Positions 19,000 to 61,904 of a stretch of 64,000 nucleotides of DNA are shown one piece after another. Source of the stretch: Escherichia phage sutha; sequence record PV245934.1; one strand, given 5' to 3'. How positions within the stretch are numbered: position 1 is the first letter of the stretch; each line of letters begins with the position of its first letter. The notes under the pieces were generated by a model. That model saw nothing but the letters and a program-made list of their open reading frames with translations, did no database searches and was not told where the DNA came from. A program made the translations under genes and the position numbers.

Positions 19000-19012
19000 A
19001 TTATTTATATCA
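19000..19012 (-). promoter_or_regulatory. late promoter TATAAATA upstream of soc
   Basis: + strand tatttata at 19003-19010 = TATAAATA on coding strand, about 30 nt before soc ATG. Confidence 0.55.
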
Positions 19013-19183: not shown

Positions 19184-19380
19184 TTTGAATGTTCTATAAT
19201 TAATTTTAAGGCTTCTTCGCTGACAAAAATTTCATCAGGACCTTCTTCTACAACCCAATCAACCACACGAAGCTGATTAGATAAGAGCTCGCATACGAGC
19301 TCTTTGTCATAATTTTTAAATAGCTGGTCAATACGTTTCTTGCGGGCTTTCTTAAGCTGGCGTTTATTTAAACGAGCCAT
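19180..19380 (-). CDS. hypothetical protein (66 aa)
   Basis: ORF between gene 56 and soc. Confidence 0.4.
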   Translation of the reverse strand: MARLNKRQLKKARKKRIDQLFKNYDKELVCELLSNQLRVVDWVVEEGPDEIFVSEEALKLIIEHSK

Positions 19381-19898
19381 TAATAACCTCGATCTTGACG
19401 AGCGAAGTTTTCAGCATTCTTCAAATAATAAAGTTTAAAGATTTCTTCAGCCGTAAGACCGAGACCTTGGAACATGTTCAGAACGAAATGAAGAATATCA
19501 ATCATTTCAAATTTAATTTCCAACTGGTCTTGAGGAGACAAATCAGTAATTAGAGTTTCACGACGTTCACCATGCTGCGACTTCCAAGGCTTCCATACAG
19601 CAGATGCATCTTTTTCACCATTGCTCATACCACCAAGAGAAGTCAGAAGTTCACGGAATTCATCATCAATGTAATCTTTCTGATTACGCAGCCAATCAAC
19701 AACTTCGCCTGCAGTAGCCAAATCATCAGGATGACGGTTATATTCAGGTTTATCTTTAGCTAAACGAACCTGCAAAGATTTCTGCATATCAAGCATAACC
19801 TGCAGCGGGTCTTTTTCATCACCGAGAATATCCCAATATTCGTTTTGAGCTTTATCAGCGCCTTCGATCAGTTGTGAACATTCATTAAAGTATGCCAT
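19380..19898 (-). CDS. 56: dCTP pyrophosphatase (dCTPase/dUTPase) gp56
   Basis: ORF 19380..19991 trimmed to ATG 19896-19898 (MAYFNECSQLIEGADKAQNEYWDILGDE), SD AAGGA; 172 aa, close to T4 gp56. Confidence 0.8.
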   Translation of the reverse strand: MAYFNECSQLIEGADKAQNEYWDILGDEKDPLQVMLDMQKSLQVRLAKDKPEYNRHPDDLATAGEVVDWLRNQKDYIDDEFRELLTSLGGMSNGEKDASAVWKPWKSQHGERRETLITDLSPQDQLEIKFEMIDILHFVLNMFQGLGLTAEEIFKLYYLKNAENFARQDRGY

Positions 19899-19969
19899 TA
19901 TTTTTCCTTTCAATTCATGGATTAGTAGATTAATTATACAATAAATATATAAAGCAATAAGGAGGACAT

Positions 19970-20170
19970 ATGGTACAAAAATTAATGGCACTTGTTAATG
20001 CCATCAAAGGTAATAAAAAACGTATAGCTTTTACTATTTCTGCTATGATAGGAATTTTACTTTGGAATTTTGTTTTATCGCCAGTTGCTCTTGCTCATGG
20101 CGTTAGTATTCCAGTAATTACTCTTGATACATTCGTAGATTTAGCATTTGCTTTAGTTGGGTTAATTTAA
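19970..20170 (+). CDS. hypothetical small hydrophobic protein; the only plus-strand ORF in an intergenic gap
   Basis: 66-aa ORF with consensus SD AAGGAGG 5 nt before ATG; hydrophobic; between divergent gene 56 and convergent gene 61. Confidence 0.4.
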   Translation: MVQKLMALVNAIKGNKKRIAFTISAMIGILLWNFVLSPVALAHGVSIPVITLDTFVDLAFALVGLI

Positions 20171-21195
20171 ATCTTAGCATATTTAGATAGACGCATTTTA
20201 GCCATCAACCCCTGAGCAATATTATTTTTCATATATTCCATAATTTGTTCAGGGGTTGCACCTTCCTTTCTAATCATATCATTAACATCTTTTGATTTCC
20301 AGGGAGATTTGTCCCAAAACATAACCCTTTCTCCTGCATCAACCAATTTAGTCATTCGTTTAATAGTGTCAGGATGACGAGGTTCATTATCTAAAACCCA
20401 TACACGTCTATCTTTAAATGGAACAATTTCTAGGTCTAATTGACCACCTGTAATAGCTATACCATTTTCAATAAAAAGTGAATCTATAGGTCCTTCTAGA
20501 ACATATACATCACCATCTTTGACTCGTTCGACTCCATATATTTTTGTTGCCTCAGGATAAGCTTTGATGGTGATATATTTTTGAGGAGCATCTTTCTTTA
20601 ATGCACGTCCTTGAAAAGACTCAGCTTTTCCATTAGCATTATAAATTGGAATAACAAGACGAGGCTCAGGTATTTCCTTTTTGTATGTTCCTGGTGCTAT
20701 GCTATTAACTAATTTAGGCCATTCGGTTGTAAACCAAAGATATTTCCATTTGTCCTTTGGAATACAACGAGCTTTTACGTATTTTATAATTGGATGGTCT
20801 TCCGCCAGTTTATCTAATCTAATACATGATGGAAGAGATTTAATTATTTTCTTCTCGGGTTGTTTAGGAAGTTCTTTAGGTTTTTCTACTGAACGACTTT
20901 TACCTTTTTCTTTTCTTATTTCAAAGATATACTCACGATATAAATCGGGTTCAAACTCCTTTAAATATATTCCGATTGGTGCATGATAGTTACAGTTATA
21001 ACAATGAATATTTCCTTCATTATTATCACCATAATACCATCCACGGGCTTTATTTTGGTCGGTTTTTGAATCTCCACAAACAGGGCATCTAAACCGCAAT
21101 TTAAAAGTTGAACTATTATTTACTTGTGTGAATTTAGGTAAATGAGCTAATGCACGGTATGCAAACTCATTATCAATCCAAGGTATTGATGACAT
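20167..21195 (-). CDS. 61: DNA primase gp61
   Basis: 342-aa ORF, zinc-binding CPVCGDS...CYNCNYH and Toprim-like core; size equals T4 gp61. Confidence 0.9.
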   Translation of the reverse strand: MSSIPWIDNEFAYRALAHLPKFTQVNNSSTFKLRFRCPVCGDSKTDQNKARGWYYGDNNEGNIHCYNCNYHAPIGIYLKEFEPDLYREYIFEIRKEKGKSRSVEKPKELPKQPEKKIIKSLPSCIRLDKLAEDHPIIKYVKARCIPKDKWKYLWFTTEWPKLVNSIAPGTYKKEIPEPRLVIPIYNANGKAESFQGRALKKDAPQKYITIKAYPEATKIYGVERVKDGDVYVLEGPIDSLFIENGIAITGGQLDLEIVPFKDRRVWVLDNEPRHPDTIKRMTKLVDAGERVMFWDKSPWKSKDVNDMIRKEGATPEQIMEYMKNNIAQGLMAKMRLSKYAKI

Positions 21196-21363: not shown

Positions 21364-21990
21364 TTAACCTCTATTCATAAAAGCATTAAAAATTTGATCG
21401 TCAATAGAAACTTTTACTTTAGACTGTTTTTCTGATGGCAATTCATATCCGCATATTACAATTTTGTGATCAATATCAAAATACACAGAAGCAATATGAT
21501 TAATGATGTTTTCAGTAAAGTCTAAATCAACATCAATATCTTTTTGACCACAACCTAAAGGATAAATAATGCGAGTAATTCGATTATCTTTAACAAAGAT
21601 TCCACCGACATACTCTGTGCTGCGTTTAAAGTCTACACGCCGACGAAATGAAAAATATTCAGGCTCTTTATGAGCTCTGCTCATAGGACATAACGAGTAA
21701 CTAGAATAAGAGATGTCAAATCCTACGCCTTCAATATGAGCCAAATTATCATGATTAAACCAATTATAATCGTACGCCAAGTCCATTAGATTATAATATG
21801 TAAAAGGCACCGGATTAACGTCATTAGTCACAAGCATGTAATTAGCAACTGCTATAATTTCATTGTTTTTAACGAATACAAACCGTGATTGATGCGAATG
21901 ACCTGGACCCGCGTTTTCACGATTAATGATATAACACTGGGCACCTTTATATTTGTATGTATCTTTGCACTTGTGCATTTGATAGAGCAT
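21364..21990 (-). CDS. 61.2-position protein (T4-family 61.2 is the anti-DarT factor AdfA; assignment here positional)
   Basis: 208-aa ORF between 61.1 and sp. Confidence 0.45.
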   Translation of the reverse strand: MLYQMHKCKDTYKYKGAQCYIINRENAGPGHSHQSRFVFVKNNEIIAVANYMLVTNDVNPVPFTYYNLMDLAYDYNWFNHDNLAHIEGVGFDISYSSYSLCPMSRAHKEPEYFSFRRRVDFKRSTEYVGGIFVKDNRITRIIYPLGCGQKDIDVDLDFTENIINHIASVYFDIDHKIVICGYELPSEKQSKVKVSIDDQIFNAFMNRG

Positions 21991-59781: not shown

Positions 59782-59956
59782 TTAAAGTTTCAATATAAGA
59801 ATCAAGATTTACTTTAGCTTCTTCCATAAGAGTTTTGTATTTAATCTTGTTAGCATGTCCGGAGAAAGCTGATTCATCAATAATTGTTGATGTATGAACA
59901 GCTTTACTATACGTCTCAATTAATTCTCTTAATTTAAAAGCCTGCTCACTTGTCAT
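59771..59956 (-). CDS. hypothetical protein (61 aa)
   Basis: ORF in array. Confidence 0.35.
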   Translation of the reverse strand: MTSEQAFKLRELIETYSKAVHTSTIIDESAFSGHANKIKYKTLMEEAKVNLDSYIETLIGE

Positions 59957-60060
59957 TACATACTCCTCTGAATCATATCAATAATGTTGTTCACCAGATT
60001 ATAAGTAAACAAAGGATAATTATATTGAATCATCACATACACAACAAACAAAATTTTCAT
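59956..60060 (-). CDS. hypothetical small hydrophobic protein (34 aa)
   Basis: Hand translation MKILFVVYVMIQYNYPLFTYNLVNNIIDMIQRSM; SD GGAGAAG; TAATG overlap with next gene. Confidence 0.3.
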   Translation of the reverse strand: MKILFVVYVMIQYNYPLFTYNLVNNIIDMIQRSM

Positions 60061-60084
60061 TCTCTTCTCCTTGGCAGTTGACAA

Positions 60085-60119
60085 GATTACTATACCATAA
60101 CCTTGTCAACTTGTAAACC
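60085..60119 (-). promoter_or_regulatory. early promoter
   Basis: minus-strand reading gtttacaagttgacaaggttatggtatagtaat. Confidence 0.5.
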
Positions 60120-60283
60120 GTTAAATGACGTTTTCAATAAAATTCTGGAGTTTTGTGTGAGCATCAACCATGATTTTCATTTCTTCTTTTGCGAAAGCTG
60201 TACCTCTTTCCCGAGCAGAATACTCATAGTCAGAAACTGCATTAGCATATTCTTCAATTAGCTTCATTAAAAACATCTGCTTT

Positions 60284-61892: not shown

Positions 61893-61904
61893 CCTATTTA
61901 TAAC
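61893..61904 (-). promoter_or_regulatory. possible late promoter TATAAATA between tk and rI.1
   Basis: + strand tatttata at about 61895-61902. Confidence 0.35.

Follow-up and report, generated by a model that had tools for sequence, protein, structure and literature searches.

Background

In bacteriophage T4, genes 56 and 61 are separated by a region that carries dam and the origin oriA (T4 record), and the primer of this origin is the minus-strand, MotA-dependent transcript of gene 56 (T4 record note; X01416). The early and middle transcripts of T4 all run counter-clockwise, and clockwise transcription is exclusively late (PMC2988020). Late promoters consist of an 8-bp TATAAATA box at positions -13 to -6 (Geiduschek and Kassavetis, PMC2988020), the commonest variant of which, found in 9 of the 50 T4 late promoters listed there, has an A at -13.

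In many relatives of T4, a small ORF is found next to gene 61. Its family, phrog_2024 (RB69ORF029w family), has members such as RB32ORF030w that are annotated as hypothetical proteins between gp56 and gp61 in hundreds of Tequatrovirus and Mosigvirus genomes, and the PHROG annotation assigns no function to it. Nolan et al. (2006) list RB69ORF029w with one transmembrane (TM) segment, at residues 21-41; a literature search for RB69ORF029w and RB32ORF030w found no paper text. The T4 records NC_000866 and AF158101 and the 1984 record X01416 leave the ORF unannotated.

In this study, we analysed a window of 64 kb, which is the initial part of a Tequatrovirus (T4-like) genome, running from rIIA and sharing approximately 95-98% identity with numerous phages of E. 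coli and Shigella, and followed up a plus-strand ORF of 66 aa between genes 56 and 61 that had been noticed in the bare sequence (the original prediction). In length, position, strand and 4-nt stop overlap the ORF equals RB69ORF029w and the other members of phrog_2024; there is no difference in kind, and it is another member of that family. The family is already catalogued, and what is added here is its omission from the T4 reference and the presence of late-gene hallmarks within an early region. We consider it likely that the ORF represents a bona fide conserved Tevenvirinae gene, encoding an inner-membrane protein of 62-69 aa, for which late expression from a AATAAATA box is proposed.

Results and discussion

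The 56-61 interval and its plus-strand ORF

The interval between genes 56 and 61 measures 268 bp, close to the predicted length of about 270 bp, and is occupied by the 66-aa ORF at 19970..20170 (plus strand, ATG start, stop included). The coordinates, the start codon and the amino acid sequence given in the original prediction all proved exact. The left neighbour, at a distance of 71 bp, is gene 56 (dCTPase/dUTPase, MAYFNECS...; 19380..19898, minus strand), and the right neighbour is gene 61 (DNA primase, 342 aa; 20167..21195, minus strand). The latter is convergent with the ORF, as had been predicted, and the TAA stop codons of the two genes overlap in a common palindrome, TTAA, at 20167..20170. 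A Shine-Dalgarno (SD) sequence, AAGGAGG, is located at 19959..19965 (plus strand); the consensus ribosome binding site is thus present as claimed, at a distance of 4 nt (acat) from the ATG rather than 5 nt. An intact copy of the ORF, preceded by AAAGGAGG, is also present in T4 (NC_000866 17738-17938, plus strand), between dam and 61.

The list of ORFs contained a 203-aa version of gene 56 (19380-19991, minus strand) with a GTG start at 19991. This version was rejected as a listing artefact that spans the intergenic promoters; the true start of gene 56 is the ATG at 19898, as in T4 and the annotated relatives.

The ORF had been called the convincing plus-strand gene of the window, and it was the sole plus-strand ORF with a PHROG match in the non-exhaustive set tested, the four others (157-333, 59950-60081, 60103-60261 and 21569-21673) giving none. 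The first three of these small ORFs lie at two stretches of the window, 1-367 (367 bp) and 59957-60283 (327 bp), that are devoid of any long minus-strand ORF.

Conservation and selection of the 66-aa protein

The 66-aa protein matched phrog_2024 over its full length (E 2e-30), its residues 2-66 aligning with positions 1-65 of the 65-position profile. Of the 35 clusters that a protein search retrieved, most shared 85-92% identity with it, and homologues of 65%, 57% and 51% identity were also among them. Using tblastn, the gene was found in 692 phage records, near full length in 685 of them, and remote versions were found in 116 further records. In an exhaustive search with a HMMER profile, 1.8 billion representative proteins yielded 7 clusters only, among them a remote member of 62 aa, indicating that the family is narrow and confined to the T4-like phage group.

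The arrangement 56(-) / ORF(+) / 61(-) is shared by RB69 and other Mosigvirus, and by metagenomic T4-like contigs that carry divergent homologues; Kanagawavirus and Gelderlandvirus have remote versions of 62-69 aa at the equal position and on the equal strand. The homology search suggested in the original prediction therefore reveals a family conserved in relatives, whose position between 56 and 61 and opposite strand are kept in at least four genera (Tequatrovirus, Mosigvirus, Kanagawavirus and Gelderlandvirus). The 4-nt stop overlap with the primase gene also recurs in T4, RB69, Kanagawavirus and Gelderlandvirus, and a strong SD is kept in all eight lineages compared.

Within Tequatrovirus, dN/dS was 0.15-0.25 (Nei-Gojobori), and the variable sites among ten copies were distributed 9:2:13 over codon positions 1:2:3, the second positions of the ORF being nearly invariant. 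Across genera, where homologues of 44-65% identity occupy the equivalent site, dN was about 0.3-0.5 and dS was saturated (>1). No minus-strand gene overlaps the ORF in a way that would confound this result. As judged from these comparisons, purifying selection acts on the ORF at the protein level. A chance ORF in AT-rich intergenic DNA, as might be supposed from its shortness (66 codons) and from its absence from the annotation of both T4 reference records, is refuted by the conservation, the synteny and the dN/dS data, and we give it practically no credence.

The functional product could instead be a late antisense RNA that down-regulates the primase (gene 61), with the ORF being incidental. 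The ORF is convergent and overlapping with gene 61, and a scan detected no plus-strand intrinsic terminator within 2.7 kb downstream of it, so that a late transcript of the ORF would run antisense into gene 61; several T4 sites are, moreover, transcribed on both strands at different times (PMC2988020). We nevertheless regard this account as very unlikely, because the protein is conserved across genera at a distance where the DNA is saturated, the strong SD has been retained by every lineage compared and the second codon positions hardly vary. An antisense effect could coexist with a functional protein, but cannot account for the coding constraint.

The T6 record AP018814 (L017, about 1572) has an ATT in place of the ATG start codon and annotates a 61-aa version beginning at Met6; high expression would thus not be indispensable everywhere. 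This record labels the product 'putative head morphogenesis protein', a label that was rejected because the record's product names plainly cannot be trusted, with 'ferredoxin' given for the dCTPase and 'terminase small subunit' for soc.

A putative late promoter on the plus strand

Counter-clockwise transcription corresponds to the minus strand in the window, and the ORF is oriented opposite to all early and middle genes there. Upstream of it, at 19940..19947 (plus strand), lies the late-promoter-like box AATAAATA, which is the A(-13) variant of TATAAATA (7 of 8 positions matching) and is followed by the AT-rich sequence TATAAAGCAAT. The predicted start near 19953 would give a leader of about 16 nt that contains the SD, and its T4 counterpart would lie at about 17,722 of NC_000866. 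From these features we infer late, gp55-dependent expression of the ORF, which would be transcribed clockwise by gp55-RNA polymerase from the box at 19940-19947.

The core of the box is rare in the window. ATAAATA was observed 7 times against 40.8 expected, an approximately six-fold depletion, with just 2 plus-strand copies, of which one is that located 12 nt upstream of the SD of the ORF. The full TATAAATA was observed twice against 11.4 expected, and one of these copies is the promoter of soc. The sites of TATAAATA or ATAAATA elsewhere in the window are 19002-19009 (minus strand), upstream of soc; 61895-61902 (minus strand); 21562-21568 (plus strand); and 45470, 47867 and 48957 (minus strand). 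The plus-strand copy at 21562 is inside a 61.2-like gene and no credible ORF comes after it.

Exact ATAAATA was present 5' of the ORF in six of the eight lineages compared, and L014 and Gelderlandvirus had one-off variants of the box only (TATTAATA and ATTAAATA). The position of the box relative to the promoter on the opposite strand differs among lineages, since it falls in the spacer of that promoter here, beyond the MotA box in RB69, L008 and L011, and at a dam-proximal site in T4, which suggests that the box is maintained by selection rather than merely inherited. In some lineages only 3-5 nt separate the box from the SD, which would place the predicted start within the SD or right at it.

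The RB69 late promoters that Nolan et al. (2006) listed with an HMM include none preceding RB69ORF029w, which counts against a late promoter there, and a scan for sigma-70 promoters returned sites no more frequently than in shuffled sequence. A search of the T4 literature on small proteins, ribosome profiling and transcription start sites gave no accessible table spanning the locus of the ORF; T4 has been the subject of dRNA-seq (bioRxiv 10.1101/2024.04.04.588121).

Middle promoter of gene 56 and hairpin on the minus strand

Also present in the gap that separates gene 56 from the ORF is a MotA-type middle promoter of gene 56 at 19933..19957 (minus strand), seen in the sequence itself and in an alignment with the 56-dam junction of T4. 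It is composed of the MotA box TTGCTTTA (19957-19950), a spacer of 11 nt and the -10 sequence TATAAT (19938-19933). This is the layout of an oriA-type promoter, namely a MotA box TGCTTtA, about 12 bp and a -10 TATAAT directly upstream of 56, and the promoter aligns with T4 P(M)16.53, from which the oriA primer transcript is made. The plus-strand late box lies within the spacer of this minus-strand promoter, which would make the 71-bp gap a compact back-to-back pair of a middle and a late promoter.

The overlap of the putative ORF promoter with a MotA promoter that matches the oriA primer promoter of T4, in the dam-less layout, might be taken to favour the idea, raised in the original prediction, that the ORF marks an origin-associated rightward transcript in a dam-less phage. 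This idea did not survive the comparison with T4. The oriA primer is a minus-strand transcript, and the T4 ORF is situated about 0.9 kb from oriA, with dam in between, and is equally conserved. The location of the ORF follows gene 61, with the 4-nt stop overlap in five genera or lineages, and selection acts on its protein. An origin-associated role is accordingly given a very small probability, below even that of the antisense RNA.

A terminator-like hairpin of 11 bp (20007-19982) followed by TTTTTG is found on the minus strand 3' of gene 61. The hairpin is embedded in codons 5-13 of the ORF, and the whole feature (20007-19972) lies within codons 1-13. Its folding energy is -12.4 kcal/mol (z -3.9), and none of 200 shuffled sequences folded as well. 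Early primase transcripts would probably end at this hairpin, just before the promoter of 56; if it works, almost all of the ORF would be covered in antisense by the 3' end of the 61 mRNA. In T4 the structure is weaker, and distant lineages have a different one or lack it. The hairpin was considered as the cause of the conservation of the ORF and rejected, since the structure is not kept in distant lineages and is a feature of Tequatrovirus.

Prediction of a small inner-membrane protein

The 66-aa protein has a GRAVY of 1.28, a net charge of +3 and a hydrophobic 19-mer from residue 19, and its sole basic cluster, KGNKKR, is located just N-terminal to a hydrophobic stretch of 23-27 residues. 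AlphaFold2, run with the family alignment, predicted helices at residues 2-12, 16-42 and 52-62 (mean pLDDT 83). These correspond to a basic amphipathic N-terminal helix, a TM helix (~16-42) and a hydrophobic C-terminal helix (52-62), with a Pro/Gly-containing loop predicted between the latter two. The invariant or near-invariant columns across genera are the basic cluster, W32-N33-(F/Y)34, P38, G44, P48 and an acidic residue at 53 or 57; W32-N33-(F/Y)34 sits mid-helix and forms part of the conserved core WNF..P..G..P. The C-terminus is hydrophobic through the last residue, …FVDLAFALVGLI (…ALVGLI). LMALVNAIK is the sole tryptic peptide of the protein that would be convenient for mass spectrometry. 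The protein therefore carries the hallmarks of phrog_2024, which are a basic N-terminal segment, a TM helix with W-N-(F/Y) and a P…G…P loop.

The original prediction of a small hydrophobic protein, for which TM-helix prediction had been proposed as a check, agrees with the one long TM helix predicted here. The product is a predicted small inner-membrane protein, and by the positive-inside rule it is most likely inserted with its N-terminus in. Sequence searches of Pfam, NCBIfam and the PDB found no relative of the protein; the sole hit in the domain and PDB searches, to NqrE (E 0.018), was dismissed as noise due to TM composition. A Foldseek search against viral models retrieved family members only.

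The protein would probably act late in infection, by helix-helix contacts that it makes within the inner membrane. A role in lysis timing, in the envelope or in membrane-associated assembly is a guess, made with low confidence. Other short phage-encoded envelope proteins are Imm, Sp/61.3, RI and the i-spanin PseT.3 of T4, which reside in the inner membrane or periplasm and act on lysis timing or superinfection. The imm and sp genes are on the early strand, and those of RI and PseT.3 belong to other clusters. The ORF differs from imm and sp in being on the late strand and in the hydrophobic C-terminus of its product; sp is about 2 kb away from it, in the same early region (T4 record). No sequence or profile similarity of the 66-aa protein to Imm, Sp, RI or PseT.3 was found.

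The holin T of T4, the antiholin RI, RIII and the spanins PseT.3/PseT.2 are encoded elsewhere in the genome, which counts against the ORF encoding a holin. The proposal would be that the product is a holin, a pinholin or a type-I-toxin-like peptide that makes the inner membrane permeable late in infection and is restrained at early times by the 3' end of the primase mRNA acting in antisense. Class II holins and pinholins (e.g. S21 68) are similar in size (60-70 aa), have one or two hydrophobic helices and are expressed late, as is predicted for the ORF, and one UniProt entry of the family is labelled 'Holin'. As regards the early restraint, antisense coverage of the ORF by early gene 61 transcripts would reach as far as the hairpin at 20007-19982. 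The 'Holin' label is, however, an automatic name on that single entry, and neither Pfam nor NCBIfam gave a holin family match. The charged cytoplasmic tail expected at the C-terminus of a class II holin is replaced by hydrophobic residues, the only basic cluster being N-terminal, and the lysis-cassette context is lacking as well, since the neighbours are the dCTPase and primase genes and no endolysin or spanin gene adjoins. We consider a holin or toxin-like peptide improbable, and favour a small inner-membrane protein of the kind predicted above.

For T4, the consequence would be that a universally conserved late inner-membrane gene is missing from the reference. It is a tentative and rather doubtful suggestion that this gene has a distinct role, for example in exclusion, in head assembly linked to the membrane or in the tuning of lysis or of lysis inhibition, and that the convergent overlap might serve to regulate it and the primase mRNA reciprocally. 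The ORF escapes omics studies in which annotated T4 features alone are counted. The practical value is modest.

dam as optional cargo of an insertion hotspot

The original prediction had placed dam and oriA between 56 and 61 of T4, in keeping with the T4 record, and had pointed to the lack of dam from the interval studied here. This lack was confirmed, as tblastn with T4 Dam found no homologue in the 56-61 interval or in the whole 64-kb window (best E 0.76). The T4 region (56-dam-61; X01416; NC_000866 16.2-18.9 kb) shares with the window genes 56 and 61, the MotA promoter of 56 and the 66-aa ORF, and differs by a segment of roughly 0.85 kb, with dam and the remnant of a 186-aa gene, that is missing from the window. 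In the alignment, this extra segment is flanked on one side by the MotA box of the 56 promoter and on the other by the late box and RBS of the ORF. Since T4 has the intact ORF plus dam, the view of the ORF as peculiar to this phage or as a stand-in for dam had to be abandoned.

The dam-less layout was found in 334 of the 503 phage records that matched the interval; the remainder align only from the SD onward, like T4. This remainder is consistent with the number of records that have a T4-type Dam at 90% identity or more, about 182. Four states of the gap between 56 and the ORF were distinguished: empty, 186-aa gene plus dam, dam plus remnant (T4) and HNH endonuclease, with the empty state accounting for about two-thirds of the Tequatrovirus records. 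The gap is an insertion hotspot, and the lack of dam represents its empty state rather than a peculiarity tied to the ORF. Other genera (metagenomic T4-likes, Mosigvirus and Gelderlandvirus) also show the empty layout, which is therefore probably ancestral, with dam as optional cargo.

In most dam carriers, including T2, the segment contains a 186-aa gene (phrog_8706) that overlaps the start of dam (e.g. L007, 2341-2901, minus strand) and is full length in about 155 Tequatrovirus records. Its product has a weak, sub-threshold match to the Pfam DpnII restriction-endonuclease family (E 0.0045). T4 and a few others retain the last 20-28 codons of this gene (remnant in L001, 3640-3702, minus strand), and because only this tail remains, the 'dam' of T4 looks like a deletion derivative of a two-gene cassette resembling a restriction-modification system. 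T6 has the empty layout, which fits an old observation that T6, unlike T2 and T4, reportedly does not induce a DNA adenine methylase.

A second methylase of the D12 class (PF02086) is encoded between nrdA and nrdB in about eight Tequatrovirus genomes, several of which have a dam-less 56-61 interval. In phage T4_ev240 (L018, 2992-3783) it is a non-orthologous protein of 263 aa with 33% identity to T4 Dam. An empty 56-61 interval thus does not prove that a phage is Dam-less; the nrdA-nrdB region lies outside the 64-kb window. The status of dam as optional cargo matters where the methylation state of therapeutic or environmental T4-like phages is inferred from partial sequence.

Homing-type insertions were also seen at gene 56. 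An HNH endonuclease is encoded directly upstream of gene 56 in several Tequatroviruses (e.g. phage RPN226; L024, 821-1471), and in Kanagawavirus 305 (Kosakonia phage 305; L019, 1032-1682) gene 56 is interrupted by a homing endonuclease and annotated as two pieces.
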